Of a stretch of 64,000 nucleotides of DNA, positions 4,509 through 54,933 are shown piece after piece. This stretch comes from a bacterium. Lineage in GTDB: Bacteria > Patescibacteriota > Doudnabacteria > UBA920 > 2-01-FULL-46-14. The notes below the pieces were generated by a model. The model did no database searches. It was not told where the DNA came from and was given only the letters and a program-made list of their open reading frames with translations. Positions within the stretch are counted from its first letter, which is position 1. Each line of letters starts with the position of its first letter. A program made the position numbers and the translations under genes. The stretch covers positions 2,876 to 66,875 of the forward strand of contig JAUYKH010000003.1 in NCBI GenBank assembly GCA_030700065.1. The letters are read 5' to 3'.

Positions 4509-4582
4509 GGCGTGAGGGCCGGGCGGCCAGGCAAAGGTCTGCAAAACCTTTTAGACGGGTTCAACTCCCGTTCACGCCTCCA
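4509..4582 (+). tRNA. tRNA-Cys (anticodon GCA)
   Basis: Hand-folded cloverleaf. Acceptor GGCGTGA pairs with TCACGCC. The anticodon arm is AAGGT-CTGCAAA-ACCTT, and the T-arm is ACGGG-TTCAACT-CCCGT. Discriminator U and an encoded CCA follow. Confidence 0.8.
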
Positions 4583-4588
4583 AGCATC

Positions 4589-4664
4589 AGGTCTGTGTCG
4601 CTACGCGACATCTGGCGAAGCCATGACAAAACCCTTATTCACGGGTTTGATTCCCGTCCTGGCC
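4589..4664 (+). ncRNA. tRNA-derived structured element X (tRNA-sized, lacks acceptor 5' strand and D-arm; degenerate T-loop)
   Basis: Element X shares AGGTCTG, CAAAACC, a T-arm-like hairpin ACGGG-7nt-CCCGT and an acceptor-3'-like heptamer with tRNA-Cys. Two extra hairpins are inserted where the anticodon loop would be. Confidence 0.4.
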
Positions 4665-4674
4665 TTAGCGAGAA

Positions 4675-4748
4675 AGGTCTGTGTCCCTGCGGGACATCTC
4701 CCGAAGGGAGACAAAACCGCGTACACGGGTGAGACTCCCGTTCAGGCC
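4675..4748 (+). ncRNA. tRNA-derived structured element Y (paralogue of X)
   Basis: Y has the same architecture as X. Its hairpin stems carry compensatory changes relative to X: GTCGC/GCGAC becomes GTCCC/GGGAC, and TGGC/GCCA becomes TCTCCC/GGGAGA. Confidence 0.4.
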
Positions 4749-4757
4749 TTTTGGAAA

Positions 4758-28646: not shown

Positions 28647-29606
28647 ATGATATTGTTCAATCTGTTGATATTCGCCATTGGTGCTGTTGTTTTGTGGTTC
28701 GCGGCCGGTTTGGTAATCAGCGGGGTAAATCGATTTTCCAGAAGCGTCAGGATTTCAAAATTCGCGACTTCTTTCCTGTTGCTGGGGTTGCTGACTTCCA
28801 TAGGTGAAATATCCGTTGGGATAAATTCCATCCTGGATAAAAAGCCGGAGATATTTGTCGGCAATCTGATCGGGGGCTCGTTTGTCATCCTGCTTTTCAT
28901 TGTTCCAATTTTGGCCATCTTCGGCAGGGGAATAACCCTGGGCCAATATCTGCAGCCGAAGAAGCTCTCGTTCTTTTTAGTTTTGATCGTCGCCCCGTCC
29001 TTTCTCATTCTGGACGGATATGTTAGCCGTTACGACGGCCTGCTTTTGATCCTCCTTTATGGCTTGTTTTTCAATCTTTTTCAGAAGTCGGAAAAACTAT
29101 TGGAGAAGCCGGATCTTAAGCAGATGAATGTCCCGCAAACAGAATATAACCTGGCGAAAATAGTCATTGGCGCGATTCTCATTTTTTTGGCCAGCAAAAT
29201 ACTGGTTGACAAAACCATTTACTTTGCCAGTATTCTGGAAATTCCGCCTTTTATGATCAGTATTTTGATTTTGTCGATCGGGACAAATCTGCCGGAACTG
29301 ATAATAGCGGCCAACTCGATCAAAAATAAACAAAAATCAATTGCCTTTGGCGATTATATTGGATCGGCCGCGACAAATTCCCTGCTTTTTGGCACCCTCG
29401 TCCTCATTTACGGGCCATTCGAGGTTGCTTCCAATGGGTTTGATTTTACCCTGTTCATTTTGCTGCTGGGGTACATCTGCTTCTTTTCCTTCGCTCATTC
29501 CCGGAAACACCTGTCCTTGATGCAGGGAGTAGTTTTGATTGTTATATATCTGTTTTTCTTCCTGGTTCAAACTACCGAGATATTTCTGGCTTCTCCAAAA
29601 ATTTAA
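28647..29606 (+). CDS. Na+/Ca2+ exchanger family membrane protein (CaCA, YrbG-like)
   Basis: Two alpha-repeat regions are present. The second carries GTNLPELIIAANSI. Confidence 0.7.
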   Translation: MILFNLLIFAIGAVVLWFAAGLVISGVNRFSRSVRISKFATSFLLLGLLTSIGEISVGINSILDKKPEIFVGNLIGGSFVILLFIVPILAIFGRGITLGQYLQPKKLSFFLVLIVAPSFLILDGYVSRYDGLLLILLYGLFFNLFQKSEKLLEKPDLKQMNVPQTEYNLAKIVIGAILIFLASKILVDKTIYFASILEIPPFMISILILSIGTNLPELIIAANSIKNKQKSIAFGDYIGSAATNSLLFGTLVLIYGPFEVASNGFDFTLFILLLGYICFFSFAHSRKHLSLMQGVVLIVIYLFFFLVQTTEIFLASPKI

Positions 29607-29628
29607 GGCTCAACCGCGGTTGAGCCTT
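29605..29628 (+). terminator. terminator hairpin (11-bp stem AAGGCTCAACC-GCG-GTTGAGCCTT)
   Basis: A perfect inverted repeat overlaps and follows the stop codon of the exchanger gene. Confidence 0.5.
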
Positions 29629-29696
29629 AAAAGCCTTGTTAGGAAGCCCTTTGTTTGCTAAGCTTACCGCGTTAAACAGTCCCCATAAAAAAGGGA

Positions 29697-29790
29697 CGAG
29701 GCCCTATCGTCCCCGCCTGACGGCCGGCAGGTAGTCTGGTCTAGCCCTCCGGAGGAGGGTCCGCCTCCGGCGGAGACGCCACCTTGAAAA
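29697..29790 (+). repeat. insertion-bearing partial duplicate of the tRNA-Glu 5' half (GAGGCCCTATCGTC ... TAGTCTGGTCTAG ... GACGCCA)
   Basis: Blocks identical to tRNA-Glu positions 1-30 are interrupted by two GC-rich hairpin-forming insertions. The region lies about 330 bp upstream of the intact tRNA-Glu. Confidence 0.5.
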
Positions 29791-30029
29791 ATGTATTATT
29801 TATACATCATTCAAAGCACAATAAAAGAGTGGAGATATATCGGCAGCACGGCCGACATAACCGAAAGAGTTGCTGAACACAATGCCGGTAAGGTAAGATA
29901 AACCAAGCCTTACAGGCCACTAAAGCTGGTGCATACGGAAACCTTTAGAGATAAAACATCGGCTCGTAAGCGGGAAATATTTTTAAAAAGGACTGCGAAA
30001 GCACGGAAAGATTTGTTTAAAGAAATTGA
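29791..30029 (+). pseudogene. GIY-YIG nuclease family protein (small T5orf172/UPF0213-like) with an in-frame TAA at 29899..29901
   Basis: Hand translation gives MYYLYIIQSTIKEWRYIGSTADITERVAEHNAGKVR*TKPYRPLKLVHTETFRDKTSARKREIFLKRTAKARKDLFKEI. The frame runs into the tRNA-Glu gene. Confidence 0.5.
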
Positions 30030-30107
30030 GGCCCTATCGTCTAGTCTGGTCTAGGACGCCAGGTTTTCATCCTGGTAACCCGGGTTCGAATCCCGGTGGG
30101 GCTACCA
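30030..30107 (+). tRNA. tRNA-Glu (anticodon TTC), encoded CCA
   Basis: Hand-folded. The anticodon arm is CCAGG-TTTTCAT-CCTGG and the T-arm is CCGGG-TTCGAAT-CCCGG. The acceptor GGCCCTA/TGGGGCT has two G-U pairs. The D-arm is GTCT...GGAC. Confidence 0.75.
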
Positions 30108-31593
30108 AATCCGATTTTTGTTTCTGATAATCCTGATTTAGTTGATAGATAGGCGACAATTTGGCGGTTCCAAATTGCCGGCCATCAAATTTAACTTTCC
30201 CTTTGAAGATTCTCTGCTGAAAGCGTAACCGAGCCAAATAATCCGGTTCCAATTCCAGCCAAGTCTTGGCCGTGTTTCTCACAAATTTAAAGCAGTAGTC
30301 CAAGGTCTCTTCCATATCAAACTCCTCGTCTGCCTTTTCCCGGATAAGCAGGCGTTTTTGATTTATGCGCTCGTTTACCAAATTTTTTTGCTCCTCAAAT
30401 TCCTCATCCGTATATTTTTTCTGTTGGTGAAATTCAAAAATTTTCTGACGTTGCTGTTCCAAAATCGCTATGTCTTTCCGGATTACGGCGTTTTGCCCGT
30501 CCAGCCGCTTGTAATTGTTTTTCCAGATATCGATCATCACGGCCTTAAAAATTTTTTCATATCTGGGACTTGGGGTGATGCTGTCCAAATACTCCACAAA
30601 AAACTGCTCAAACGTTTCTTTGGGGATAAATTTGGTTTTGTCGCATCCCTGTTTTTGGTGATGGTAATAAGCGTATTTTTGGCTCCTGCCACGGCTTTGG
30701 CTGCCAGTCAGCGACTTATCGCACAAATCGCAAACAACCAACTTGCGCAGCGGAAACAACGGATTGTTTATAGAGTGTGGCCGCGGCCCGGCCGAGATTT
30801 TTCCAAATCCGGGCTGGCAACTAGCAAAAAGATTTTTGGATACAATCGGCTCAAAACTCCCTTCGTATTCCTTGCCCCAAATTTTGATGATCCCGCAATA
30901 CAATGGATTTTTTAGAATTTTTTCCATGAGTTGTTGACACGGAACGGATCCGAAACTGGTTCTGAATCCTCGACTGGTCAAAAGTTCGGCTAGACTTTTG
31001 AAAGTATGCTCGCCTTTGGCCCATTCCTCAAAAATCATTTTGACAAAATGGGCGGAATTAGGATCAGGGGCGATATTGTTACTTTTTGCTGGCCGATAGT
31101 ACCCAACCGGGCATTTCCAGACCCATACTCCTTGTTTAATTCTTTCCAACATACCCTGCACCGTGCGTTCGGTACGCATGTTGTTATCCAACTCCGCAAA
31201 TAATGAAAGCATCTGTCCAAAGGCAATACCAGACGGGCCAGTGCCATACGGTTCTGTAACTGATATTAGCTCTGTGCCGGCCTGCACAAGTAGGTCTTTG
31301 ATGTCAATATAGTCTTTAAGACGGCGGGCAAATCGATCCAGTTTGTAGACAATAAAAACACTAATTTTGTTTTTATTGTCTTTGCAGCGGTTGATTGCCT
31401 TTGTGAATTCTGTCCGGTCGGCAGTTTTTGCTGACTCCCCGCGCTCAACAAACACTTTTAAAACCTTGATGTTTTGCCGCTCCGCGTATTCCCGGCACAG
31501 TCGCTCCTGGCTTGCCAAACTGGTGCCCTCAAGCTGGTCATAGGAGCTCACCCGGCAATAAATCACCCCTGTTTTTTGAGTTGTCTGCGTCAT
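30067..31593 (-). CDS. large serine recombinase (resolvase catalytic domain + recombinase domain + zinc ribbon), integrase of element 1
   Basis: The N-terminus VIYCRVSSYDQ carries the catalytic serine. A Cys-rich segment CDLCDKSL...C is present. The last 14 codons (DLVAPPGFEPGLPG) are the reverse complement of the tRNA-Glu T-arm and acceptor. Confidence 0.85.
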   Translation of the reverse strand: MTQTTQKTGVIYCRVSSYDQLEGTSLASQERLCREYAERQNIKVLKVFVERGESAKTADRTEFTKAINRCKDNKNKISVFIVYKLDRFARRLKDYIDIKDLLVQAGTELISVTEPYGTGPSGIAFGQMLSLFAELDNNMRTERTVQGMLERIKQGVWVWKCPVGYYRPAKSNNIAPDPNSAHFVKMIFEEWAKGEHTFKSLAELLTSRGFRTSFGSVPCQQLMEKILKNPLYCGIIKIWGKEYEGSFEPIVSKNLFASCQPGFGKISAGPRPHSINNPLFPLRKLVVCDLCDKSLTGSQSRGRSQKYAYYHHQKQGCDKTKFIPKETFEQFFVEYLDSITPSPRYEKIFKAVMIDIWKNNYKRLDGQNAVIRKDIAILEQQRQKIFEFHQQKKYTDEEFEEQKNLVNERINQKRLLIREKADEEFDMEETLDYCFKFVRNTAKTWLELEPDYLARLRFQQRIFKGKVKFDGRQFGTAKLSPIYQLNQDYQKQKSDLVAPPGFEPGLPG

Positions 31594-31595
31594 AT

Positions 31596-31790
31596 TTATA
31601 TCGTATCCTTTGGTTTTAATTTAGGCAATAACCCAAACGGGATTTTGGAACCGGGCGTTTTGCTGGCCTGCCAACTTTCCAGCGCCAGGTGCCCGAGTTC
31701 ATACAATTCAGCAAGCACCTCTTGGAGCTGTGTGTCCGAGAGGTCGTTCAGGTTCGGATCTATTTGTCTGGCTTGCTTAATTGTTAGCAT
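31596..31790 (-). CDS. small hypothetical protein adjacent to the recombinase (possible directionality factor)
   Basis: The 64-aa ORF is tightly spaced to the recombinase gene. Confidence 0.3.
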   Translation of the reverse strand: MLTIKQARQIDPNLNDLSDTQLQEVLAELYELGHLALESWQASKTPGSKIPFGLLPKLKPKDTI

Positions 31791-31805
31791 GGGCGCGGTT
31801 AATGA

Positions 31806-32045
31806 TTATTTATGGGGTTTTTTACGAGTAGTTTTACTGTCTTTGTTTCGTTGATAATTTTCTTTTCGGATTTGTTTGAAAGGGTCTTCAATAATTTCCA
31901 CTGGTAAAGTCATACTGATTGGAGAATCATTGGTATATGTCACCTTGATATACATTGTTTCTGCCGCTCCCGCTTCCTGGGCCGTGGCGTCCGAATTTGT
32001 GTTTTGTTTCTGACGTACCTTTACTCTTGCTCTTTTTTTACGCAT
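31806..32045 (-). CDS. small basic hypothetical protein
   Basis: The 79-aa ORF has a lysine/arginine-rich N-terminus. Confidence 0.3.
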   Translation of the reverse strand: MRKKRARVKVRQKQNTNSDATAQEAGAAETMYIKVTYTNDSPISMTLPVEIIEDPFKQIRKENYQRNKDSKTTRKKPHK

Positions 32046-32137
32046 TTTGGTTTAATTAATATGCTGCTAATGACCGCGTCCGCCAGTATGGCAAAATTAC
32101 CCGGCCTTAGGGGGAGTAATTTTGCCATACTGTATCC

Positions 32138-33895
32138 CTATTCGTCTATTGATATCACCTCAACCTCCGGGGGATTTTCATCAAACGGTTGCAAGCTACA
32201 AAATACCTTATTTTTTTCTCCTCGCAATTCAAACAGCTCGCCTGCTTCGACCATCTCTTTAACCGCTTCCGCGAATGTTTTGTAGCCAACCTGGAGCTCT
32301 TCCCCCAGTATGGCCTCGAATAGCTCCTTCTTATAAAGCACCGGCGATTGCTCTGATAATATGGATTTAATCGCTTCCTTAATGGCCAATTTTTTACTCA
32401 CTGATTCTTCCACCTCGCCGGCGAAACTGAATTCCCAGAATTTTTTATCGCTGACTATGATGTTCAGGCGAAATGGGTTGGTTTCTTCGGCGTTTCGGAG
32501 CTTGACCTGGGTTACCAAGAGCGAATATTTTTCTTCCCGGTCAATTGCGATCAACGAATGTACGGCGGCCAGAATGTCCGAGGAGCCACGAATAGCCTGA
32601 TCCGGCCGGCCCTTTAACCGGCCGTCCTTGCGGTTGTGGTGAAGGATGAGCACGGTGATCCCTTCTTTGCAAAGTTTCCGGAACAGACCGAATGTCTGGG
32701 CGACTTCAGTGGCGCTGTTTTCTTCGCCTCTGTGGACCCGGACAAGTGAATCAAAAATTGCCAGCTTGATGCCGTTGGTTTTGGCAAATGAAATTGTTTG
32801 CTCAATGCGGTCATCAAGTTTGTAGTTGGAGTATGATAAGAGGAAGATTGGCAAAGCGGGATTGGATTGCAGCATGGCAAAACGCTCCTGCAGCAATCCT
32901 TCGCCATTTTCTTCATCAATGATCAAAACCGGGGCTTTGTGTGTGGCAAATTTGCCGAAAAGCGGATCGCCGTTTGCAACTGATTTGGCCACATCCAATG
33001 CAAACCACGTCTTCCCTGATTTTGGGTGTCCGGCAATGATTGTGATGCCTTCGGCTGGCACGAGTTTTTCGACAATCCATTTTTGTTCTGGGAATTTTTT
33101 TGCCATGAGTTCGGAGAGTTTAATGGGTTCGAATTGTGGCGCTTCGTCCGTCTGGGGTGAGCCATTTGTTCTGCGTTGCATTTCCGTACGCGCTATACTG
33201 TCAAAAGTGTCTCTCAATTCTTTGATCGGAAGAGGTGGTTTATTTCTTTCGTTCCATGCGCAAATTACGTCCCATCCGGCGCTTGCCCATAATTCTGTGG
33301 AAAGATCGTGAAGCAGTTTTCCAACGTAACTCGCCGCGGTTTGATTTCTGACACCTAGGTTCGCCCCGGCCGCAATTTGATGCCAGTCTTTTTGGCCGGC
33401 ATAATTTTGGTTTTGATTCAATACCCATTCGGGCAAATCAGCCAAATCGGTATCGCCCGGGCCAACCATCCATTCGTAACGGTTTCCCGATGCATGTAGG
33501 GACGGCGGGGCGATAACATAACCGCCATCGCCCCGAATGTCAGTCAACTCCCTAACCCGCGCCTCGGTTTTCACCAGTAATCCGGGGTGGCGATAATAGA
33601 AGTGCCAACCCCCGCCGCCGGATTTGGCCATAACTGTCGGCGGCAATCCATCCGTACTGCCGTCTTTTTCAACATCTACAGCAACGATGCCCGAAATAGT
33701 TCCAGTCACAATCCCTATATTCAAATTTGGCCATTGTTTGAACCAAGCTTTAATTTCATCCATCCCTGCTCGTCGAGTTTGAAATTCCTGCCACGCGACA
33801 AGTGGACGTTTGTCCTGATCAATGGGGATGACCGACCATCCCTTGCCCAAATAATTTACTGCCGCGTCGTACGCGTCGTAGTTCGGGTTATTCAT
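32138..33895 (-). CDS. bifunctional primase-polymerase (Prim-Pol) N-domain + AAA_25/RepA-like ATPase; mobile-element replication protein
   Basis: The N-terminal Prim-Pol-like motif NIGIVTGTISGIVAVDVE is followed by Walker A GHPKSGKT and Walker B ILIIDE. Confidence 0.75.
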   Translation of the reverse strand: MNNPNYDAYDAAVNYLGKGWSVIPIDQDKRPLVAWQEFQTRRAGMDEIKAWFKQWPNLNIGIVTGTISGIVAVDVEKDGSTDGLPPTVMAKSGGGGWHFYYRHPGLLVKTEARVRELTDIRGDGGYVIAPPSLHASGNRYEWMVGPGDTDLADLPEWVLNQNQNYAGQKDWHQIAAGANLGVRNQTAASYVGKLLHDLSTELWASAGWDVICAWNERNKPPLPIKELRDTFDSIARTEMQRRTNGSPQTDEAPQFEPIKLSELMAKKFPEQKWIVEKLVPAEGITIIAGHPKSGKTWFALDVAKSVANGDPLFGKFATHKAPVLIIDEENGEGLLQERFAMLQSNPALPIFLLSYSNYKLDDRIEQTISFAKTNGIKLAIFDSLVRVHRGEENSATEVAQTFGLFRKLCKEGITVLILHHNRKDGRLKGRPDQAIRGSSDILAAVHSLIAIDREEKYSLLVTQVKLRNAEETNPFRLNIIVSDKKFWEFSFAGEVEESVSKKLAIKEAIKSILSEQSPVLYKKELFEAILGEELQVGYKTFAEAVKEMVEAGELFELRGEKNKVFCSLQPFDENPPEVEVISIDE

Positions 33896-33997
33896 TTTTT
33901 AGTTCCTTTCTTTTTTTCGGTCTAACTATTTTTGCCATTAGAGCCGATTAATTATTAGCCTTCTACCCTTAATGGCGAAAAATCTGGTGAAATAATG

Positions 33998-34024
33998 AAA
34001 AACCCCTATAAAAAGGGGTTTTTT
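33998..34024 (-). terminator. bidirectional intrinsic terminator (AAAAACCCCT-ATAAA-AGGGGTTTTTT)
   Basis: A perfect 10-bp stem is flanked by A-runs and T-runs. Confidence 0.6.
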
Positions 34025-34058
34025 GCTAACTTATTTCCGGTGAATTCACCGGGACGGC

Positions 34059-34973
34059 TTAGCTGTCATCATCTTGATTTTCTTCGTATACTGAAGGGTT
34101 TTGCTCATCCAAAAAATCCCTTATGCCAAGCCGATCTGGATGTTCAGGGTCGTGCCCTTGTTCGGGTATCAAATTAATTTTGATTCTGTATGCCTTCACT
34201 TTACGATAATTCTCGAATGGGTCGTCGGCAATCTGGAAATAGTACTTTAGCGCTTGCGACAGTAACTGTTTTCGTTTCTTGTTTTTTCCGCCTAAATCGT
34301 TGACGGTATCCCAGTTAATTTCGCCATTGTTGGCAGCCAATTCTTGCAACAGCTTCCATTGAACATTTGGCTGTTTGTTTTTTTCATTTTCAAACCCCAT
34401 CATCGCGAACGTGGTCTGCTTCCTTTCATCCCGAGCATCTATCATCACCTCGCCCCCATTAAAAAATCTTATAGCAATTTCTTCCCAGCGTAAGCCGGCT
34501 GGCCACTCGGGCAGTTCAATATTTTTTTTGCCTTTTCTAAGAATACTTGGCTTGGCAGGTACGTTGCTTTCCAAATCAGCAAGCATGTCATCAAGCGAAG
34601 CCTTTCTTTCCCTGTAGCCGTCGCCCTGCTTTAATTTTTTATAATATTTTAATAAATCCTCCCGTCCGTATTTTAAATCAATACTTTGGCCGTTTGTAAA
34701 TGCATTGGCAAAATCAATCAGGATATCGGGGTTCTTAATTATGAATAATTCTTCCAAATCATCCGCAATCCCTTGTAGTTCGGATTTTAACAGATCAATC
34801 TTGGCGATAAAATTGCCTGCACCACTAATATGATTCAGCAACGGACGGAATTCGGAAAGAGGAGTTGAAAATGATCGCTTTTTCCCTTTGGCTTCGAGCC
34901 TTTTGCGGATCAAAAAAATTAGCAAAGGATAAAGCAATTCTTTTTCTGGATAGTTAGTGTATACGCTGGGCAT
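34059..34973 (-). CDS. hypothetical protein (element 1)
   Basis: The 304-aa ORF has no recognisable motifs. Confidence 0.5.
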   Translation of the reverse strand: MPSVYTNYPEKELLYPLLIFLIRKRLEAKGKKRSFSTPLSEFRPLLNHISGAGNFIAKIDLLKSELQGIADDLEELFIIKNPDILIDFANAFTNGQSIDLKYGREDLLKYYKKLKQGDGYRERKASLDDMLADLESNVPAKPSILRKGKKNIELPEWPAGLRWEEIAIRFFNGGEVMIDARDERKQTTFAMMGFENEKNKQPNVQWKLLQELAANNGEINWDTVNDLGGKNKKRKQLLSQALKYYFQIADDPFENYRKVKAYRIKINLIPEQGHDPEHPDRLGIRDFLDEQNPSVYEENQDDDS

Positions 34974-35539
34974 GCCCTAATTTTACCCTAAAACCACCCT
35001 CCGCCGCCATAAAAAGCATAATCCAGTTAAAAATAGGCAAATTCAGACAAAAAAATGCGAAAGTGGCCGACTTTTTCGGATTGTCTAAATTTTCTGTGAT
35101 CATTGGCCGCGGTTCTGTAAGGATAAACACGGTGCTACTTCAAATATGCCTATGGCCACTGTTTTAACCGGCGGTAGGCGGAATGTACCTAGGATACACC
35201 TAGCTCACCGGCGAGCAACTTGGCGATTTTTTGGAGATTCTTTTTTGGGGATTTTTGATTGCGGTTTTGAAATAATTTTCCAAACCACCGCCCCCCGGAA
35301 TCGGTGAAAATGAACATTTTGCGGAGACAGGGGCCTACACAGGTACTTTCCACAGTTTGTGACTGAAAAAGTCGAACCAGTCCCCCCACTCCCATTCTCG
35401 CCATCCACAATCCTTATACCTTCTCAATGGATTTTTAAGCGATTCCCTGGTCGATAGTCGCTTAAGATCCCCATAATTATGCAGCTTTACGCTGACTTGA
35501 GCGTTCGGCGGCAACGTAAACAAGCCGCCCAAAATAAGT

Positions 35540-35800
35540 ATGAAAGTCAAAACCATTAGGAAAATTAGCTATCGCTCAAGCGACGCTGCCGGTTTGCCCG
35601 TGCCTTGCTTACCTTTGCAAGGCAGGCACATGGAGCAGTACGGCTTCTATTTGGGCGAGACGGTTTTTGTCGCTTATGAACGGGGCAAAATTACCATTAT
35701 CTTGATCGAAAAATCATTAATCAAACCGATTGGGGGTGATCAATATGGAATACAAAAATTATTGCCCTGCGCAGCTCTCAATTCATATTCGCAGAAATGA
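35540..35800 (+). CDS. SymE-family toxin-like protein (AbrB/SpoVT-like fold)
   Basis: KISYRSSDAAGLPVPCLPLQGRHMEQYGFYLGETVFVAYERGKITI resembles the SymE core. Confidence 0.45.
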   Translation: MKVKTIRKISYRSSDAAGLPVPCLPLQGRHMEQYGFYLGETVFVAYERGKITIILIEKSLIKPIGGDQYGIQKLLPCAALNSYSQK

Positions 35801-36098
35801 TTTGGGTCAACTTCTTGAACGCTCGACTATGGTAAATTTGAGGGCCGCAACAGCCGAAGAATGTTACCGACTGTTCGAGGACATCAAAGCCAAGCTGGGC
35901 AAAGAACTAGGTGGCGATGCTAGCCCGGTTTCTATGGACGGGAACGCGCCAATCCATTTCCCAGACGAGAGCGTTCCCTGCGAGGAATGCGGTGGCCGCC
36001 TAGTGGCCCGAGTGGCCAAGAACGGCAAAAATGCAGGCCAAAGATTTTTTGGCTGTATCAACTTCCCGCAGTGTCACTACACACAGGCCGTGGCGTAA
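35746..36098 (+). CDS. protein with a C-terminal topoisomerase-type C4 zinc ribbon
   Basis: CEECGGRLVARVAKNGKNAGQRFFGCINFPQCHY matches zf-C4_Topoisom. A GGGGG Shine-Dalgarno-like run precedes the ATG at 35746. The track ORF begins at 35730. Confidence 0.5.
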
Positions 36099-36157
36099 GG
36101 CGAAAAGGCGGTCGGATTTCCCGGCCGCCTTTGATCTCGATTTCTTTTATTTTTTCA

Positions 36158-37705
36158 CTACCTGTACATATAGATATTGGGCACACCTGGCCGATAATCC
36201 ATCCAGACTATTGTATTTTCATATATATCGGGGCTGCTTTGGGTTGTTCCCGGAAAATTGGTCAGTAATGTAGTCTCCCCTGTAACTATGTCATACATCA
36301 CAATATCCCCGGGGTTGTCATAGTAAGTGTCAAACCACACGATTTTTGTTCCATAGATGGCCGGTCCCCCTTGAGATCCTATGTTGCTCGAAAGCTGGGT
36401 TTCCTGGCCCGTGGTAATGTCGTACATGTACACATCCGGGTTATCATTCCGAAAATCCGTCCAAACAATGATGTTTCCGTAAATATCGGGGTGATTCTGT
36501 TGCCGTAAGGCCGTGGTAACATGCGTTTCCTGGTCTGTTGAAAGGTCATACAGATAAATATCAGAATTGCCTAAGCTGTTCCCCGTTTCATCAGGATTGC
36601 GCATGTCGTCCCACACTACTCTGTCCCCCTGTATTCGCGGACATCCGGGCAGGAGGACTGATCCCGAGAGGCTTCGTTCCTCCCCGGTAGTCAGATCCAA
36701 AAGATAAATATCACTGCGATTCGAATTACCCGGTTCATCGCTGTACCGATTGTCTCGCCACACCACGCGGTTTCCGTAAATGTCCGGGCAGGCCAGCTTG
36801 GCCAGATCGCTGTTGATTCTTGCGGTTTGTCCATTATCCGTATTGTATAAATAGACTGCGTCATTCACCCCATATACGATATTGTGCTCATAAACATGCG
36901 GGAAAATCTGCCCCTGGGACTGGACATTTGATATCTGGGCGGCTTCGCCGGTTGCAAGGTTCTTGTAGTAAACCTCCCAGGCATTGGTCCGATAATCGGC
37001 CCAGGCTACAATGTTGCCATAGATTGACGGTGAAAACTGGGGCGCATTGTTCGGGCTAACGGCAGAAATGGTGGGAGCGGGTGGCGGTGGGGGCGGAGGC
37101 AAAGCGATGTTGTAAGCGATGCAGTAAATATCCGCCGGGTGTTTTTTATCAAGTGAAACGAGCTCCAAATTATCCCCGTTGCGCGCGTTGTTATAGCATC
37201 GCAAGGCGGCAAAATCGGCTTCAATATTTTGATCGGGGTTTTCGCTCACCCACAACTTTTTGGGAAAATCTTTTTTCTTGTGAGTCGTGTCGAGGGAAGA
37301 CAAGGGAATTATCACCTCGCCGGACGAATCCGTCAGGGGAGTGAAAAAGACGTCTTTTGTTTGCCGTTGATCGGTTGAGAGCTTGAAGCTCCGGCCGCTT
37401 GTTCGGGCGCAGTTCGCGGGAATCTCGGCAGGATCTACGGGTTTGGGCGAGTATTTGGCCGGGAAATGCGGTCTGGAAGCGCTGTAGTTTGTAAAGTCCA
37501 CGTAATGCCCGCCGGTTTCGTCTTTGCGATCAGCTTTGGCATTTCCCGTAATGTCCTGCCAAGAGGGGCAATTTACGCTTATGAAATGCAACGATGCATC
37601 CGCCGGCGGAGCCGGGTGGGCCTGTGCCGTGGGCAGGATCGCCGCACCTAACACCAGCGCAACACCTCCTCCAACTATCGAGAATACAGACTTGTTCATA
37701 TTCAT
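36158..37705 (-). CDS. secreted beta-propeller repeat protein (TolB/PD40-like repeats) with a poly-proline linker
   Basis: A signal peptide MNMNKSVFSIVGGGVALVLGAAILPTAQA is present. The motif IYGNxVVWxDxR...DIYxxDLxTGEE recurs, and a PPPPPPPAP run is present. Confidence 0.5.
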   Translation of the reverse strand: MNMNKSVFSIVGGGVALVLGAAILPTAQAHPAPPADASLHFISVNCPSWQDITGNAKADRKDETGGHYVDFTNYSASRPHFPAKYSPKPVDPAEIPANCARTSGRSFKLSTDQRQTKDVFFTPLTDSSGEVIIPLSSLDTTHKKKDFPKKLWVSENPDQNIEADFAALRCYNNARNGDNLELVSLDKKHPADIYCIAYNIALPPPPPPPAPTISAVSPNNAPQFSPSIYGNIVAWADYRTNAWEVYYKNLATGEAAQISNVQSQGQIFPHVYEHNIVYGVNDAVYLYNTDNGQTARINSDLAKLACPDIYGNRVVWRDNRYSDEPGNSNRSDIYLLDLTTGEERSLSGSVLLPGCPRIQGDRVVWDDMRNPDETGNSLGNSDIYLYDLSTDQETHVTTALRQQNHPDIYGNIIVWTDFRNDNPDVYMYDITTGQETQLSSNIGSQGGPAIYGTKIVWFDTYYDNPGDIVMYDIVTGETTLLTNFPGTTQSSPDIYENTIVWMDYRPGVPNIYMYR

Positions 37706-37714
37706 ATCATTTAA

Positions 37715-38380
37715 TTAATAAATAGGTTTATTATTAAAGGCAATGTTGGTATCTCCAATAAGTTTATTTGTGCCGCCAGTACTGGCCTGTTTCATGAGCG
37801 ATTCTAGACCTCCGAATTCCTTATCGCCAAAGTAGGTATCGGTTTTATTTTGCATCGCCCTAGTAAAATCTCCCAGTGCCTCATCATATCGGCCCACTTT
37901 TAAGAAACAATAGCCCCGTTCTACCAACCCCCAACATAAACCATTAATTGCATCAGGCCCGCCAACAAACTTTAATCCAGTTGTGTAGTCAATTATGGCT
38001 TTGTCATACAGACCCTGCAGTCGGTATATTTCACCTTTTCTGTAAAAAGCTTGATAGTAGTCTGGCCGGGACAAAATCGCGTAATCTAACCATTTTAGCG
38101 CGTTATTAAAATCGTTCGCATATAAAAAATTCTGAACGGCCACTTTATATGCCGCAAGGCCGACTGACCCTAAACTTGCGCAAAAAACAGCTTCTTGTTG
38201 TAGCCCTAACCTTTCGAGTTCACAAATGATTATTTTTTGAATATCTTGTTCTTGCATACTTGTATTGGTGGAAGCCGCCCGGCTAACACAAAACCCCGTG
38301 TCAGCTGGCCTTGCGGCCCATAACCCTTTCGGGCTATGACTCGTTGAAAAGTTGCTGAACGCGGGGTTCACTGTTTTCAA
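37715..38380 (-). CDS. TPR-repeat protein; probable true start at 38257 (MQEQ), with the ORF-track N-terminus running through repeat copy 1
   Basis: TPR-like helices are present (YYQAFYRKGEIYRLQGLYDKAIIDY). The first 41 codons coincide with the 88-bp repeat element. Confidence 0.5.
   Translation of the reverse strand: MKTVNPAFSNFSTSHSPKGLWAARPADTGFCVSRAASTNTSMQEQDIQKIIICELERLGLQQEAVFCASLGSVGLAAYKVAVQNFLYANDFNNALKWLDYAILSRPDYYQAFYRKGEIYRLQGLYDKAIIDYTTGLKFVGGPDAINGLCWGLVERGYCFLKVGRYDEALGDFTRAMQNKTDTYFGDKEFGGLESLMKQASTGGTNKLIGDTNIAFNNKPIY
38283..38370 (-). repeat. 88-bp self-hairpin repeat, copy 1 (about 92% identical to copy 2 at 45792..45879, inverted orientation)
   Basis: Outer stem AACCCCGCGTTCAGC/GCTGACACGGGGTT and internal GNRA-loop hairpins. 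Based on my hand alignment of the two copies. Confidence 0.6.
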
Positions 38381-38520
38381 CGAGTTTTTCCTGCCATGCC
38401 CCAGTTATGGAGTTTAGGCCGTATTCAATTGTACTCGAATTATACGCCCGCGCTTTTTACTTATCAAGTGAAAAGTGGTAAAATAATACGACTAATTATA
38501 CTAAATACTAACTATAACAG

Positions 38521-39489
38521 ATGAGCGTAATACATGTAGGCCATTCAGAGATAGTACGATTCGCTGACGAACGAGTGAATCTCAAACGTGATGACGCGAA
38601 AGTCTTCAGAGATCAAATTAATCGTTTGCGTGATCGTTTAGAACAACACTTGAGTGAACATCCAGATTTTGCTCTTAAAAAAATGTTCCTATCAGGGAGT
38701 CTTGCAAAAGGGACAGCACTGAAATTGATTAATGATGGCGACGTTGCCGTTTACGTTTCTTCTGGCGATGCACCATCGGACACGCAGCAGCTTATCCCTT
38801 GGCTTGCACAGCGACTTCGTCAGGCCTTTCCCAATATCAAACCAGGGCAAGTCGTAGAAAATCCGTCCACGCTAACAGTATCTTTTATTGAAACAGGATT
38901 AAGGGTTGATGTCGTCCCTGTTCTTTATAGCGGTGATCCTAATTGGAAAGGTTATATTGTTTCAAAGCATACAGGGGAAAAAGTACTTACCAGCATACCG
39001 ATGCATATAGATTTCACTCGTCGCAGGAAAGCAGCAAATGAAATTCATTTCGCGCAAGTAGTCCGCCTCATGAAATTCTGGGTCAGGAATCAAAGACTAG
39101 AAAATCCAGAATTCCGATTCAAGTCATTCATGATTGAGTTGCTCGTGGCGCATCTTGCAGATCGAGGACTGCTCCAGCTTGATGACTATCCTGAAGCGTT
39201 GGCACAAATTTTTGCACATATTGCAAAAGATAGTTTTAAATCAACAATTGCATTTGGCGACCACTATGATCCCAAGCTTTGTGCTGAAACATCTCATCCG
39301 ATCCGCATTTGGGATCCCATAAACCATCAAAATAATACTGCTAGTCGCTATACTGACGCACAAAGAAAAACGATTATCGAATTCGCATTAGATGCTGGCG
39401 ATGCCATTGACTCCGCTCTCCACGCTACTACAAAGGCCGACACTCTACGATACTGGCGCAAAGTTTTAGGATCAACATTTGACGCATAA
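38521..39489 (+). CDS. cGAS/DncV-like nucleotidyltransferase (CD-NTase, CdnC-like)
   Basis: Pol-beta NTase signature SGSLAKGTALKLINDGDVAVYV, with a third acidic residue in LRVDVVPV. A helical C-domain follows (HFAQVVRLMKFW, FKSFMIELL). Confidence 0.75.
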   Translation: MSVIHVGHSEIVRFADERVNLKRDDAKVFRDQINRLRDRLEQHLSEHPDFALKKMFLSGSLAKGTALKLINDGDVAVYVSSGDAPSDTQQLIPWLAQRLRQAFPNIKPGQVVENPSTLTVSFIETGLRVDVVPVLYSGDPNWKGYIVSKHTGEKVLTSIPMHIDFTRRRKAANEIHFAQVVRLMKFWVRNQRLENPEFRFKSFMIELLVAHLADRGLLQLDDYPEALAQIFAHIAKDSFKSTIAFGDHYDPKLCAETSHPIRIWDPINHQNNTASRYTDAQRKTIIEFALDAGDAIDSALHATTKADTLRYWRKVLGSTFDA

Positions 39490-40003
39490 AAATATGTCTA
39501 ATTCTTATACGTTTACTGAAACACAAACATTTACATTCACGGATGCAAAATACATCGCCGCGAAGGTCGCGACCGATCTTGCCCGATTTAGACGTTTTTA
39601 CAATAGCCCTTCACTTGAACTTATTAAGCAGTACGAAGAAGAACTAACTGCTTTATTGAAAGCTGATTACTTGGATAACATAACTTATGGTTTCAAGAGA
39701 GGTGAAAAATGGATAGAAGCCCTTCGCTACCATGCTCTATCAGGCGGATCTCTAGTCGGAGATGATGACCCTGGCAAAATACGTCCAGGCGTCGATGTTA
39801 TGGGAGCACATTTCACTTCTTTTTTGGTTCTAAATAGTCGCTGGAGTCAATTATCTACGGCTGCACAAGAGGCTTTTGAAGCAAATCTGCCATTTAGAAG
39901 AGGCGGTGGAGATGAACCTGCTCTTGAAAGTGGATATTGGTCACATGGTCACAATTATGCATCGGGTGGACGCAGTATTGGACGCAGTACAATAATTCGT
40001 TAA
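39479..40003 (+). CDS. HORMA-like protein (Cap7-like), putative
   Basis: The 174-aa ORF overlaps the nucleotidyltransferase gene by 11 nt. Size and position match HORMA in type III CBASS. There is no independent motif evidence. Confidence 0.45.
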   Translation: MTHKNMSNSYTFTETQTFTFTDAKYIAAKVATDLARFRRFYNSPSLELIKQYEEELTALLKADYLDNITYGFKRGEKWIEALRYHALSGGSLVGDDDPGKIRPGVDVMGAHFTSFLVLNSRWSQLSTAAQEAFEANLPFRRGGGDEPALESGYWSHGHNYASGGRSIGRSTIIR

Positions 40004-40008
40004 ATATT

Positions 40009-40941
40009 ATGGATGAAGAAAATATAGACAATCTTTTTGATCAACGCGTTAATTTCCCAGATCCCGAGGCCTTAAGGCGCTTCGATAACCTGGTCGGGAT
40101 CGATGAAATCAAGCTAAGACTTATTCGATCTCTTGGGATACTCGTGAATCCTGAAGGGGTTCGTCAATGGGGTAAAAAATTTCATCCAGAAAGCACAGCG
40201 CTAATTGAGCTTGTAGAACGTCGCCCTCCTCTGGTAATTCTCAGCGGTGATGTAGGCACGGGCAAAACAGAACTTGCAACCACAGCCGGTGACCCAGTTG
40301 CCCGTCAAGAAAGTATTGATATAACTCTGTTTCCTCTAAGTCTTTCAACCCGAGGATCTGGAAGGGTCGGCGAAATGACAAAATTACTAAGTGAAGCCTT
40401 TAACGAAACTTTCAAAACGGCAGAAAAATTTAAGAGCCGTGGTTCAAAGGCAAGAGGGGCTGTGATTCTTTTGGTTGATGAAGCTGACGCCATTGTTCAG
40501 AGTCGTGAAAATAATCAGATGCATCACGAAGACCGTGCTGGAGTAAATGCGTTTATCCGAGGTGTCGATCGTCTCGCAACTCAACGGTTACCAGTGGCTG
40601 TTATATTATGTACCAATCGACTATCTGCGATTGATCCCGCTGTACAGAGACGCGCAGCAGAAATATTTGTTTTTAACAGACCCAATCCAGCACAACGTCG
40701 CACCGTTCTACAAAAACCTTTAACGGAGATAGGTTTCACTAAAAAAGAAGTAGAAAAAATTGTTCAACTGACTGGTTCTGTAGATGGTCGTAAGCACGGA
40801 TTTACTTATTCTGATTTAACACAGCGATTACTCCCAGCATTAGTGCTCGACGCCTATCCAGATAATCAAATAACTTTTAAGCGTTCACTTGAAGTTTTGG
40901 CGACGATTAATCCAACAGCTCCGTTTCAAAAATCAGCTTAG
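40009..40941 (+). CDS. AAA+ ATPase, TRIP13/Pch2-like (Cap6-like)
   Basis: Walker A GDVGTGKTE, Walker B ILLVDEADAI, sensor-1 CTNR and arginine fingers PAVQRRA are present. The track ORF starts at 39937. I prefer the ATG at 40009, just after the upstream stop. Confidence 0.65.
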   Translation: MDEENIDNLFDQRVNFPDPEALRRFDNLVGIDEIKLRLIRSLGILVNPEGVRQWGKKFHPESTALIELVERRPPLVILSGDVGTGKTELATTAGDPVARQESIDITLFPLSLSTRGSGRVGEMTKLLSEAFNETFKTAEKFKSRGSKARGAVILLVDEADAIVQSRENNQMHHEDRAGVNAFIRGVDRLATQRLPVAVILCTNRLSAIDPAVQRRAAEIFVFNRPNPAQRRTVLQKPLTEIGFTKKEVEKIVQLTGSVDGRKHGFTYSDLTQRLLPALVLDAYPDNQITFKRSLEVLATINPTAPFQKSA

Positions 40942-40946
40942 AATAT

Positions 40947-41705
40947 ATGGTAAATAAAGCCAAAGATGATTCCATAAAGGATGGCAGATCCTTTCTGAAG
41001 GATAGGTTCATAGATGTAGAAAAATTTTTTGTACAGCAACTTAGGCTTAATCAGAAAAGAATCACTCATGATGGTGCATTAGGGGACGCCACAGAAGATG
41101 TGTGGATTCAGTTGCTTCAAGATTATCTTCCTACGCGTTATCGGGTAGCCAAAGCTTTTGCAGTTGATTACCTGGGTAATACAACCCAGCAACTTGATTG
41201 TCTTATTTACGACGCACATTTTACTCCCGCCCTGTTTGGTAAGGACAATCATTTATACGTGCCAGCAGAAGCTGTCTACGCGACCTTTGAGATTAAACAG
41301 ACCATTAATGTTCAACATTTAAAAAACGCGGGAGATAAAGTCGCTTCTTTGCGTGCTCTACATCGCACATCTGCTCCCCTTGAAAATGCGACTGGCGTAA
41401 GTGAACCAAAACAGCTATTTCCAATTATGGGAGGACTACTTGGTATGAAGGCTTCATGGAAAGACGGCCTTGGTAATACATTTCTTAAACAATTCAACAC
41501 CTTGTCAGGCGATAGAAAACTTGACCTTGTTTTAACCGCTAGTAATGGTTTCTGTGATCATTTGGTAACGACTTATACTCCCACTATTGTTCATGGTCCT
41601 GGTTCGTTAATACGTGGCCTTTTCCGCCTCCTCAAGGCTTTACGAGCCAAGGCAACAGTGGCAGCTGTTGATTGGGAAAAGTACGAATCAGTTTTTGATG
41701 CATGA
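40947..41705 (+). CDS. NucC-like restriction-endonuclease-fold (PD-(D/E)xK) effector nuclease
   Basis: LDCLIYD ... PAEAVYATFEIKQ forms a D...ExK motif. GDATEDVWIQLLQDYLPTRY and LRALHRTSAPL resemble NucC family proteins as I remember them. Confidence 0.55.
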   Translation: MVNKAKDDSIKDGRSFLKDRFIDVEKFFVQQLRLNQKRITHDGALGDATEDVWIQLLQDYLPTRYRVAKAFAVDYLGNTTQQLDCLIYDAHFTPALFGKDNHLYVPAEAVYATFEIKQTINVQHLKNAGDKVASLRALHRTSAPLENATGVSEPKQLFPIMGGLLGMKASWKDGLGNTFLKQFNTLSGDRKLDLVLTASNGFCDHLVTTYTPTIVHGPGSLIRGLFRLLKALRAKATVAAVDWEKYESVFDA

Positions 41706-41735
41706 TGGCTAAACGCAACAAAACCCGAAAACGAA

Positions 41736-45543: not shown

Positions 45544-45791
45544 AGTATAAAGTTAATAATTTCCCTTATTTTACAGGAAACGGCGTAAAAGAGTAATAGG
45601 CTGACGCATATGACACGCATTCCCTAACGCAATAGGGATAGACATACATGAACCAAAAAGTGCTCCAAACGGCCGTTTTTCGTCAAATAACAGCTATTTA
45701 TGAATTAAGCAGGAAGTTATATAATAAAAATGACAATTAAGCCTAAACCTTTGAAAATGAGGCATGGCACAAAAAACTCATGGAAGATACT

Positions 45792-45879
45792 GAACCCCGC
45801 GTTCAGCAACTCTTCCATGAGTCATATCCCGAAAGGGCTATGGGCCGAAAGGCTAGCTGACACGGGGTTTTGTGTTACC
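45792..45879 (+). repeat. 88-bp self-hairpin repeat, copy 2
   Basis: See copy 1. The track ORF 45730..45927 is merely a translation of this element. Confidence 0.6.
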
Positions 45880-54694: not shown

Positions 54695-54933
54695 GAACGA
54701 TACGGTATAATCGCCATGATTAATGATTTCGTCTCAAAAACGATTTGCCACTTTTACCAGCGGCTCACTGCTGTTTTTTCATTATACTAGCGTCTGGGGT
54801 GTCAAAGTAAAAATCTGATAGATATCAAAAACAAGTCTCTCAAAAGTTTTCAACCTGTCTCGAAACGGTCTACCATCTGGAAAATATTCGATTGACCAAT
54901 TGACTATTTTAGGAATTGAGGTAAAATTACAGC

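Follow-up and report, generated by a model that had tools for sequence, protein, structure and literature searches.

The 64-kb stretch of a Candidatus Doudnabacteria genome analysed here (the window) contains, at 29697..31593, a tRNA-Glu(UUC) gene that is engaged from both sides: upstream of it lie an interrupted partial copy of the same gene and a small GIY-YIG nuclease gene, and from downstream the gene for a large serine recombinase (LSR), LSR1, runs on the opposite strand into the 3′ end of the tRNA itself. The intact tRNA gene occupies 30030..30107 on the plus strand and encodes its own CCA; both ARAGORN and Rfam (tRNA model, 60.3 bits) place it where the first-pass annotation of this DNA had done. 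Two further assemblies, L002 (GCA_034374505.1) and L001 (Logan SRR13727534), match the locus at 99.9–100% identity, and since they carry the same sequence, the in-frame stop codon and the other odd features described below are not errors of a single assembly.

The partial copy comprises three blocks that are colinear, and that are contiguous within the tRNA itself. The first (29698..29711, plus strand; GAGGCCCTATCGTC) is an exact 14-nt direct repeat of 30028..30041; previously described as positions 1–14 of the tRNA, it has the length then given, but in fact consists of two flanking nucleotides followed by nt 1–12 (nt −2..12). The second (29732..29744, plus strand; TAGTCTGGTCTAG), earlier recognized as the D-loop block, is an exact 13-nt direct repeat of 30042..30054 and copies nt 13–25, and the third (29775..29781, plus strand) is a stub, GACGCCA, that reproduces nt 26–32 exactly. 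An exact 14-mer together with a colinear 13-mer inside 900 bp is far beyond chance, and the first block is the left part of a 5′ tRNA fragment that has been either displaced or duplicated. The two GC-rich, hairpin-forming interruptions that had been noticed between the blocks are of different kinds. At tRNA position 12^13 there is a single hairpin of 20 nt (29712..29731, plus strand), which from its sequence and fold is of a degenerate CCTGCCTG-ccgg-CAGGCAGG type, whereas at position 25^26 a 30-nt double-hairpin module (29745..29774, plus strand) is cleanly inserted, the tRNA sequence resuming directly past it in the stub. Within the module, CCCTCCggaGGAGGG abuts TCCGCCtccGGCGGA, each hairpin having a 6-bp stem and a 3-nt loop, and the whole lies 16 nt 5′ of the GIY-YIG start codon.

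Rfam searches over 29550..30200 (E ≤ 10) matched no intron family and nothing in the partial copy; a group I intron was considered and rejected on this ground, and because a complete, uninterrupted tRNA follows the open reading frame (ORF). A scan for sigma-70-type promoters upstream of the unit found none, and a terminator-like palindrome lies upstream of the partial copy at 29602..29631. On the minus strand, 29692..29714 forms a further terminator-like hairpin that faces the recombinase side: the flank upstream of the fragment pairs with its nt 8–12 and the first inserted Cs (GGGACGA…TCGTCCC), and a T-run follows.

Between the partial copy and the tRNA, 29791..30054 (plus strand) encodes a domain-only GIY-YIG protein of UPF0213/Slx1-like type (PF01541, E = 1.2e-14; 45–73% identical to its homologues), the last eight codons and stop of which are nt 1–25 of the tRNA. 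As had been reported, the frame is broken by a TAA: it stands at 29899..29901, codon 37, where the homologues have TCA for a Ser that is at least 90% conserved. Reassignment of TAA was rejected, this being a single change from TCA at so conserved a Ser, and to judge from its sequence the window copy is a recently inactivated relic (TCA→TAA). The unit as a whole belongs to a subtype inserted at the end of the D-arm, in common with loci L030, L032, L036 and L055, all of which have stubs equivalent to GACGCCA after the module, and it additionally carries the extra hairpin at 12^13. Hairpin insertions at the latter position recur in L025, L048, L053 and L066, with CCTG...CAGG-type ends in L048 and L066.

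The same arrangement is widespread. A scan of metagenome contigs yielded at least 558 related loci, of which 80 were fetched and 72 have enough downstream sequence for comparison; the recurrent layout is that of a ~330-bp unit made up of a 5′ tRNA fragment, a 30-nt GC-rich double hairpin, a gene for a UPF0213/Slx1-like GIY-YIG protein of ~85 aa, and an intact tRNA. A same-strand tRNA starts at the end of the ORF in 52 of the 72 (Glu in 28, Ser in 17, Cys in 3, Gln in 2, and Asp and Asn in 1 each), and the stop codon lies within the tRNA in 31 of these. Nearly all 52 have a second copy of the 5′ part of the tRNA, 50–100 nt upstream of the ATG, and this copy ends at a loop: at nt 35/36 in ~24 loci, at nt 21–23 in ~9, and in others at nt 12, 48 or 58, or near full length. 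Anticodon position 35^36 is the commonest insertion point in the relatives, as against the junction of D-arm and position 26 in the window, and the inserted unit is always succeeded by an intact copy of the same tRNA. At the tRNA-Glu loci of other genomes (L003–L019), no upstream tRNA fragment is present within the 60 nt examined. Some 20 of the 72 loci (L089, L090, L091 and ~17 more) have no tRNA after the ORF, and some of these possess a different long palindrome upstream, AGTCAGGTACC-agac-GGTACCTGACT; such loci may target other genes.

The 30 nt directly past the fragment form two abutting hairpins with a 6-bp stem and a 3-nt loop each (for example, TCCGCCggaGGCGGA TCCTCCttcGGAGGA), and many of the related loci present abutting hairpins of 6–7 bp at the same distance from the ATG as in the window. 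When the 30 nt after the tRNA match are taken without selecting for pairing, 77% of cells are paired under a fixed double-hairpin structure, compared with 31–46% when the partner is slid, and none of 1000 column shuffles reaches this value; moreover, several stem positions covary (GC/CG/TA/AT). In a comparison bearing on whether the module works as RNA or as DNA, G·U mismatches in the stems are not enriched over A·C (3 versus 4). Under strict criteria, 573 kb of sequence yielded 44 modules, and a relaxed scan of the window found only two with perfect stems, against 0–1 in shuffled windows. The insertion junctions are clean, with no target bases lost (CTTT^CAC, CTTTT^CAAG, CTG^CAAAA, GGTTA^GGAC and GGTT^CGAATCC). 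In most cases the GIY-YIG gene begins 9–21 nt downstream of the module, and hairpin 2 often sequesters a GGAGGA situated 9–14 nt before the ATG (in its 3′ arm in L020–L024). Across the modules of L020–L057 and that at 29745..29774, one loop frequently reads GNA in the top strand (GGA, GAA or GCA) and its neighbour frequently GNA in the bottom strand (TCC, TTC or TGC); where a locus has left and right copies of the module, the stems are identical and the loops differ. Additionally, modules occur away from any recognizable tRNA at L024 (5033..5062), L057 (5441..5470) and L098 (5752..5781), and, on this sequence evidence, the module may be capable of insertion at other sites or of independent movement.

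The protein consists of the catalytic domain alone, with no DNA-binding domain. Among the 34 closest homologues, the length is mostly 79–90 aa (range 79–111), the domain covers residues 1–71, Tyr5, Tyr16, Gly18, His30, Asn31 and Glu62 are invariant, and Arg26 is at least 90% conserved. The C-termini read GPIV or GAIV, or else (A)PSSSG, PSSIG or LSSSLV, each followed by a stop, and correspond to the first 15–25 nt of tRNA-Glu in two frames. The best matches in the PDB are to the UPF0213 proteins BH0048 and EF2693 (1zg2, 7e-13; 1ywl, 7e-12), followed by SLX1 (3e-6) and, only at 0.03, I-TevI; no NCBIfam model matched the protein, and a search of phage records gave distant GIY-YIG relatives only. 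All of the close homologues that have a source name are from Patescibacteria lineages.

Several comparisons bear on mobility. Between L041 and L042, module, stub and ORF are 99% identical (2 mismatches in ~290 nt), yet the flanks are unalignable and the adjacent tRNA-Glu variants differ at ~8 positions. Units are found in tandem in L034 and L050, and in L020, L022, L034, L052, L061 and L072 the intact tRNA is followed by a spacer, a short 5′ stub, a second copy of the locus's module and, from exactly nt 36 onward, the 3′ half of a tRNA. In L061, the upstream GGCTCCA and the downstream TGGAGCC are perfect acceptor-stem mates, and between these mated fragments stands a foreign complete tRNA with its own pair, GGCCTTA/TAAGGCC; therefore, the whole is a cassette with its own tRNA inside a split host tRNA. 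Over ~550 nt, L075 and L076 differ by only five substitutions, all of which fall in the 35-nt upstream fragment, a pattern that reads as gene conversion between the two tRNA copies. In the comparison of L030 with L032, the module is more conserved than the ORF. Taken at the level of sequence comparison, then, the anatomy of the GIY-YIG unit, its recurrence, its horizontal spread, its accumulation in tandem and the gene conversion between its tRNA copies are shown.

L048 offers a related observation: at ~4320..4470, 3′ of an intact tRNA-Glu(CUC), lies a full-length second tRNA-Glu whose sole interruption is a 40-nt nested hairpin following nt 12. This second gene is a mosaic, its 5′ part resembling the neighbouring gene and its 3′ part the tRNA of L066, which is evidence that copies have recombined. 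Within the window, two tandem ORF-less units are present at 4583..4750, directly 3′ of a tRNA-Cys gene (4509..4582). In each, the stub AGGTCTG leads into a double-hairpin module (imperfect at 4597..4626, perfect at 4682..4711), after which comes a tRNA-Cys 3′ half that begins at the anticodon (CAAAACC…); the acceptor strands of the two halves differ from one another and from that of the intact gene. From their sequence, these units suggest past activity of the GIY-YIG element family at a second tRNA of the same genome.

On the other side of the tRNA-Glu gene, LSR1 in its integrated form occupies 30067..31593 (minus strand) and encodes a protein of 508 aa with Resolvase, Recombinase and Zn_ribbon_recom domains (PF00239, 4e-31; PF07508, 8e-10; PF13408, 5e-6, respectively), ending in ...DLVAPPGFEPGLPG; the best NCBIfam model is CcrB, below its cut-off. 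The earlier proposal that the recombinase C-terminus derives from the antisense strand of the tRNA is upheld: the terminal PPGFEPGLPG is read from it, and the 41-nt overlap (30067..30107) takes in the CCA end, the 3′ strand of the acceptor stem, the T-arm, the variable loop and the 3′ side of the anticodon stem, with the TGA stop being the complement of a TCA in the anticodon loop. The gene is intact in both assemblies, for which reason the element to which it belongs (E1) may still be active.

That tRNA-Glu is an integration hotspot bounding E1 had also been suggested, and the far end of the element can now be placed by means of two signatures. The 10-bp core GGGCTACCAA (acceptor end, discriminator, CCA and 1 nt) occurs in perfect copies at only two positions in the window, namely, 30099..30108 (attL, plus strand) and 41878..41887 (attR, plus strand; the former junction between the tRNA and a second element, E2). 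Moreover, a tblastn search with alternative recombinase tails gives a single hit in the window, at 41789..41887 (minus strand), which is the stranded 3′ end of LSR1, that is, the P′ arm of attP: it reads LVALVGGTWNLIVADLKAWREFATSLPANSFH followed by a stop, is 58% identical to the tail of homologue P0013 (E = 5e-7), and is out of frame with the overlying ORF of a second recombinase, LSR2. In an excised circle, this tail would follow the ...KSD of LSR1. The repeat and the displaced tail together define E1 as an element of 11,779 bp from repeat to repeat (30099..41887; body, 30109..41877), with attP in the final ~100 nt of LSR1, such that integration swaps a 29-residue tail for ten tRNA-encoded residues. 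The predicted circle junction is …AAATCGGATTTGGTAGCCCTTGTGGGAGGGACTTGG… (minus strand, …CAGAAACAAAAATCGGATTTGGTAGCCCTTGTGGGAGGGACTTGGAACC…), the predicted E1-free site …CCCGGTGGGGCTACCAACAGAACTTTTATTTC…, and the predicted island-free site …GGTGGGGCTACCATCTGGAAAATATTCG…. Searches of the window with GGACACAAGCTT and T-loop patterns found no displaced 3′ half of tRNA-Glu, and none is expected, because the LSR crossover is at the extreme 3′ end.

This arrangement extends to the recombinase family at large. More than 1,500 homologues of LSR1 exist, and the tails were read in the best 120. Of these, 103 have tRNA-derived tails of the form …LV(A/T)(P/L)(R/P)G(I/V/F/L)EP…, in which the antisense CCA end, acceptor strand and T-loop are recognizable; the frequent ending …PG before the stop places the latter on the anticodon loop of tRNA-Glu. 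A further 11–12 diverge right after LVA into a conserved LVGKSWNRIVxxLxxWxxF (consensus LVxLVGxxWNxxxxxLxxWxxF). Three genes with the alternative tail lie on plasmid-like contigs or on contigs resembling integrative and conjugative elements (Replic_Relax, TraG/TrwB-like, DUF87, Toprim), with no tRNA in 12–21 kb, whereas three genes with the tRNA tail each overlap an antisense tRNA-Glu(UUC) and have a stranded tail 4.2, 6.0 or 9.4 kb away. Because attP lies inside the gene family-wide, the running of the recombinase gene into the tRNA is no peculiarity of the present locus.

LSR2, the recombinase of E2 (41736..43331, minus strand), has the same three domains as LSR1, to which it is 28% identical. 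Past ...ERNKSS it crosses the core in another frame (…ERNKSS|VGSP…), and continues in a meaningless frame through E1 DNA; a supposed second tRNA remnant under this end (GRDLEPN…) was rejected, being simply an out-of-frame reading of the E1 attP arm. Many LSR2 homologues end in …GSATGNRTPI…, which is the tRNA T-arm in that frame, and others in GGPxRDxPRTxxxLxxxLxxYF. The stranded 3′ end of LSR2 (…GRPFRDRLKTFERLVFDIYQIFTLTPQTLV and a stop) is found at its predicted place, 54782..54877 (minus strand), by tblastn with the tail of P0197 (E = 0.001), and the LSR2 body joined to the DNA left of 54870 reads …VGRPFRDRLKTFERLVFDIYQIF…. The right core of E2, CTACCA, is at 54870..54875, and an independent Logan contig starts exactly at 54870 (CTACCA…); the native flank downstream of the tRNA resumes at ~54876, giving E2 a body of ~13.0 kb (41888..~54869). 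Independent contigs break at both ends of the island. From the order tRNA–E1–E2, it follows that E2 came first, and that E1 then reused the tRNA end, E2 DNA supplying the right half of its attB.

The cargo assigned earlier to E1 (recombinase, Prim-Pol/AAA replication protein and SymE-like toxin) all falls within 30109..41877, which holds LSR1, two small ORFs, Prim-Pol/AAA_25, a 304-aa ORF, the SymE-like gene, a Zn-ribbon gene, a TPR protein, a LOOT RNA and an operon of the cyclic oligonucleotide-based antiphage signalling system (CBASS) type. The operon (38521..41705) encodes a SMODS cyclase, a bacterial HORMA protein, a TRIP13-like AAA ATPase and a DUF6602 effector; the ORFs beside LSR1 (64 and 79 aa) gave no match in Pfam. 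E2 carries LSR2, an HTH gene, a LOOT RNA, an RDD protein, an HNH nuclease, two C5 methyltransferases, Vsr and a LexA/S24-like protein; the segment 48198..52481, from the HNH gene through the methyltransferases and the Vsr mismatch endonuclease to the LexA/S24-like repressor, has a low GC content (0.34–0.40). The sRNA motif LOOT (RF03000) is present in both elements (38307..38420, minus strand, in E1; 45740..45854, plus strand, in E2) and in two of three other integrated LSR elements fetched (L103, 6642..6762; L106, 9547..9663), and so, on sequence grounds, looks like a recurrent cargo of these recombinase elements.

Overall, we conclude, with a probability of about 0.7 for the explanation as a whole, LSR and GIY-YIG sides jointly, that tRNA-Glu is the target of two unrelated families of selfish elements, both of them specific for tRNA genes: LSR elements at the 3′ end, and a GIY-YIG mini-element at the 5′ end. 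On the LSR side, E2 and later E1 integrated by site-specific recombination at the 3′ terminus of the tRNA, in its final ~10 nt (…GGGCTACCA). Both LSR families have attP inside the 3′ end of the recombinase gene, so that the free element encodes a longer enzyme with a conserved tail; on integration, the gene comes to run into the antisense tRNA and to stop at a codon of the anticodon loop, the tail piece being left stranded at the far end. The anatomy of this tail swap is shown by the genes and stranded tails compared above; the swap may affect stability or directionality.

On the GIY-YIG side, the most likely course, in view of the comparative anatomy, is nuclease-initiated homing with restoration of the tRNA. 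The nuclease would break a naive tRNA gene, and the break would be repaired from an element-bearing allele, with the flanking tRNA sequence serving as homology arms; through repair, the recipient would gain module, ORF and either a whole replacement tRNA or the 5′ part of one. The host gene's own 5′ fragment, displaced, would stay upstream, and, in complete cassettes, the 3′ fragment downstream, and later gene conversion between tRNA copies would homogenize or erode them. Candidate roles for the double hairpin are disruption of the target site, a recognition structure for the Slx1-like nuclease, or translational control, the last because hairpin 2 so often sequesters GGAGGA before the ATG.

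A number of points weigh against these conclusions. Throughout, the evidence is comparative anatomy, with no cleavage, excision or insertion observed, and, for the GIY-YIG unit, there is no true empty/filled pair of loci in one genetic background. A restored tRNA would keep the presumed target site, and would have to escape self-cleavage; a protein of ~85 aa without a DNA-binding domain is unlike the characterized homing endonucleases. In L041 and L042, both copies of nt 1–35 are host-specific, which fits duplication by a staggered cut better, unless gene conversion or selection has intervened. For the LSR elements, the right end of E2 is given by a weak protein match (E = 0.001) and a contig break, and the attB of E1 is a hybrid of tRNA end and E2 end, the right half-site of which is unlike the native one. 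Two other observations stand apart from these points. L001 follows the window as far as tRNA nt 28, beyond which its last eight bases (11412..11419, from window position 30058 onward; …GGAC|ACAAGCTT) differ; they are compatible with the anticodon stem of a different tRNA-Glu, and reflect either a strain variant or a jump in the assembly graph. As an empty-site variant, this end is indistinguishable from such a jump into another tRNA-Glu, and it was not used. The pattern GGCCCTATCGTC-N(0-30)-TAGTCTGGTCTAG has 17 matches in 185,579 representative genomes, all of them uninterrupted tRNA-Glu genes, and is uninformative as regards insertions.

The main rival of homing is transposition with a long target duplication, in which the mobile DNA would be the module and ORF alone. 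The nuclease would nick the two strands ~25–40 nt from each other, one nick falling at the 5′ edge of the tRNA gene and the other within a loop, and after insertion these would be filled in to duplicate the sequence from nt 1 to the loop, and the double hairpin would be an element end recognized by a structure-specific nuclease. Such a mechanism would account well for the near-identical element of L041 and L042, flanked on both sides by the host's own nt 1–35, and for the duplication in L055, which takes in at least 11 nt of 5′ leader; insertion of the module is clean and leaves the target bases intact, and the protein, lacking a DNA-binding domain, belongs to the UPF0213/Slx1 clade of structure-specific nucleases. 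Simple duplication, however, leaves unexplained the complete foreign tRNA, second module and displaced 3′ half of L061, L020 and L034; the length of the duplication ranges from 12 to ~60 nt; and, since gene conversion between copies is visible, identical duplicates are not diagnostic. To our knowledge, there is no GIY-YIG transposase of this kind, and we regard transposition as unlikely. A host operon is more improbable still: a housekeeping GIY-YIG nuclease would be co-transcribed with the tRNA, and the pseudo-tRNA and hairpins would be a leader for processing, stability or translation. The same-strand overlap in most loci, the conserved and covarying structure of the module, its outlasting of the ORF between L030 and L032, and the position of GGAGGA in L020–L024 are all as such a leader would have them; nevertheless, a housekeeping gene would not be expected as near-identical elements in unrelated genomes, as tandem repeats, as related nucleases at different tRNA species, with its ORF ending in the tRNA in two frames, as nonsense or otherwise decayed copies (that of the window included), or as ORF-less, module-bearing 3′ halves downstream of tRNAs, as at the tRNA-Cys of the window. 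The restriction of the source-named close homologues to Patescibacteria, and the absence of the fragment from L003–L019, argue in the same direction.

Two other possibilities concern the window more particularly. The first-pass annotation had allowed that the interrupted copy (29698..29781) might be a functional tRNA-derived non-coding RNA. Its hairpins are indeed structurally conserved, and the region lies 3′ of the palindrome at 29602..29631, where it could be transcribed from the old tRNA promoter, but the Rfam search recommended for it came back blank, as described above, its folding energy is no better than that of shuffled sequences (z = −0.89), the tRNA fragment extends over anything between 12 and ~60 nt in the loci compared and is subject to decay, and the interrupted pattern for this tRNA sequence is absent from the representative genomes scanned; we consider such a function very improbable. 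We give least credence of all to the reading that the same annotation preferred, in which the 5′ copy and the GIY-YIG gene, the latter as former cargo, would be leftovers of repeated integrations at the tRNA att site. The locus is truly a hotspot, as the two tandem LSR elements testify, but the LSR crossover falls within the final 10 nt of the tRNA gene and generates a 10-bp repeat, with no duplication on the 5′ side. The fragment/module/GIY-YIG/tRNA layout, moreover, recurs in dozens of loci without a recombinase overlapping the tRNA, no tyrosine integrase or other recombinase gene lies left of the tRNA, where the two genes beyond the locus encode TypA and a Na/Ca exchanger, and no ORF of at least 40 aa is present on either strand of 29607..29928, which leaves no space next to the partial copy for a recombinase gene. 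As the LSR crossover leaves no 5′ duplicate and the unit recurs without a recombinase, the GIY-YIG unit is a separate, self-contained element family.

Genomes of the candidate phyla radiation (CPR; Patescibacteria) are tiny, and their tRNA genes are, as a rule, single. Any element that inserts into such a gene must, for that reason, avoid killing its host, and the present locus exhibits two solutions to this problem. The LSR half is already known in kind, having a precedent at ssrA, and what is new is the conserved tail of the free form and its stranded copy. The resulting rule (attP within the gene, a rewritten C-terminus, and a stranded tail that marks the far end) generalizes a published oddity, and can delimit islands from sequence alone, in this case carriers of CBASS and restriction-modification genes. 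The GIY-YIG side points to an abundant mini-element, as judged from the number of related loci in a single metagenome scan. More tentatively, and with the odds rather against it, the GIY-YIG gene and double hairpin may constitute a new class of mobile element, and the LSR tail swap a built-in switch of directionality or stability. A structure-specific nuclease of this sort would read folded DNA, that is, hairpins or the cloverleaf extruded by a tRNA gene, and not a long sequence, and the element would insert cleanly into tRNA loops, sparing the host by duplicating or importing a tRNA; in the LSR switch, the full-length enzyme could serve for integration, and the tail-less enzyme for excision or silence. 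If the GIY-YIG part of this reading holds, the fragmentary, hairpin-interrupted tRNA genes in CPR assemblies could be explained, a part of the widespread UPF0213 family would gain its first biological role, the double-hairpin elements (DHEs) of mitochondria would have a candidate enzyme-linked counterpart, and compact structure-guided nucleases would be possible.

With regard to known systems, a search of the open-access literature, an incomplete collection, found no description of the combination of GIY-YIG gene, tRNA and double hairpin, and a search for a natural serine integrase with attP in its own gene returned, for that phrase, only a paper on synthetic circuits, which we have not read. 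Tyrosine-integrase islands at tRNA genes restore the tRNA by replacing the displaced part, which stays behind as a partial repeat. That repeat is of the 3′ part and is accompanied by an integrase, whereas the GIY-YIG unit duplicates the 5′ part, as with the 5′ repeat of the window, or carries a whole tRNA, and encodes no recombinase. The SSV1-type archaeal integrase gene is split on integration, and cluster G mycobacteriophages have attP within the repressor gene. LSR1 resembles both in that the attachment site is within a coding sequence, and free and integrated forms encode different proteins; these, however, are tyrosine recombinase systems, and the serine recombinase keeps its catalytic and DNA-binding domains and swaps only its last ~30 residues.

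The closest relatives of the LSR elements are the ssrA islands of Dehalococcoides. According to the accessible part of their description, the gene for the CcrB-like DsiB always overlaps attL at its 3′ end and has its stop codon beyond the island; each island is delimited by a brief direct repeat taken from the 3′ terminus of a tRNA-like gene, and islands pile up in tandem (McMurdie et al. 2011, PMC3146451). In the same fashion, LSR1 runs into tRNA-Glu and LSR2 into E1, and CcrB is the best NCBIfam model for LSR1. Here, by contrast, the target is tRNA-Glu and not ssrA (transfer-messenger RNA), the host belongs to the CPR, and no DsiA-like small partner lies beside LSR1; the conserved free-form tail, together with the copy of it stranded at the distal boundary of each integrated element, goes beyond the account of the ssrA islands in the portion of PMC3146451 available to us.

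For the GIY-YIG unit, the partly accessible account in PMC2330249 describes SegB of T4-like phages as a free-standing GIY-YIG endonuclease of a tRNA cluster, preferentially co-inherited with the flanking tRNA sequence through break repair. Both are intron-free GIY-YIG genes among tRNA genes, but SegB has extra domains, whereas the present protein is a catalytic domain alone (~85 aa) of the UPF0213/Slx1 clade, encoded on bacterial chromosomes, and at its junction the unit additionally shows a duplicated tRNA fragment together with a double-hairpin module. As for the traits of homing endonucleases in general, the same element does occur in different genomes at the same target with unrelated flanks (L041/L042), but the nuclease is not fused to a DNA-binding domain for a long target. 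Lastly, the DHEs and GC clusters of fungal mitochondria are short, GC-rich double hairpins, dispersed and potentially mobile, in RNA genes and spacers, and DHEs (Paquin et al. 2000) have, in the parts of the sources accessible to us, no flanking duplication and no enzyme assigned to them (PMC10085805, PMC2800124). The bacterial modules, likened to them here by description, are similarly short and GC-rich, with two adjacent hairpins, many copies and clean insertion; unlike the mitochondrial elements, they are found at precise positions in tRNA loops, and are mostly coupled to a GIY-YIG gene.

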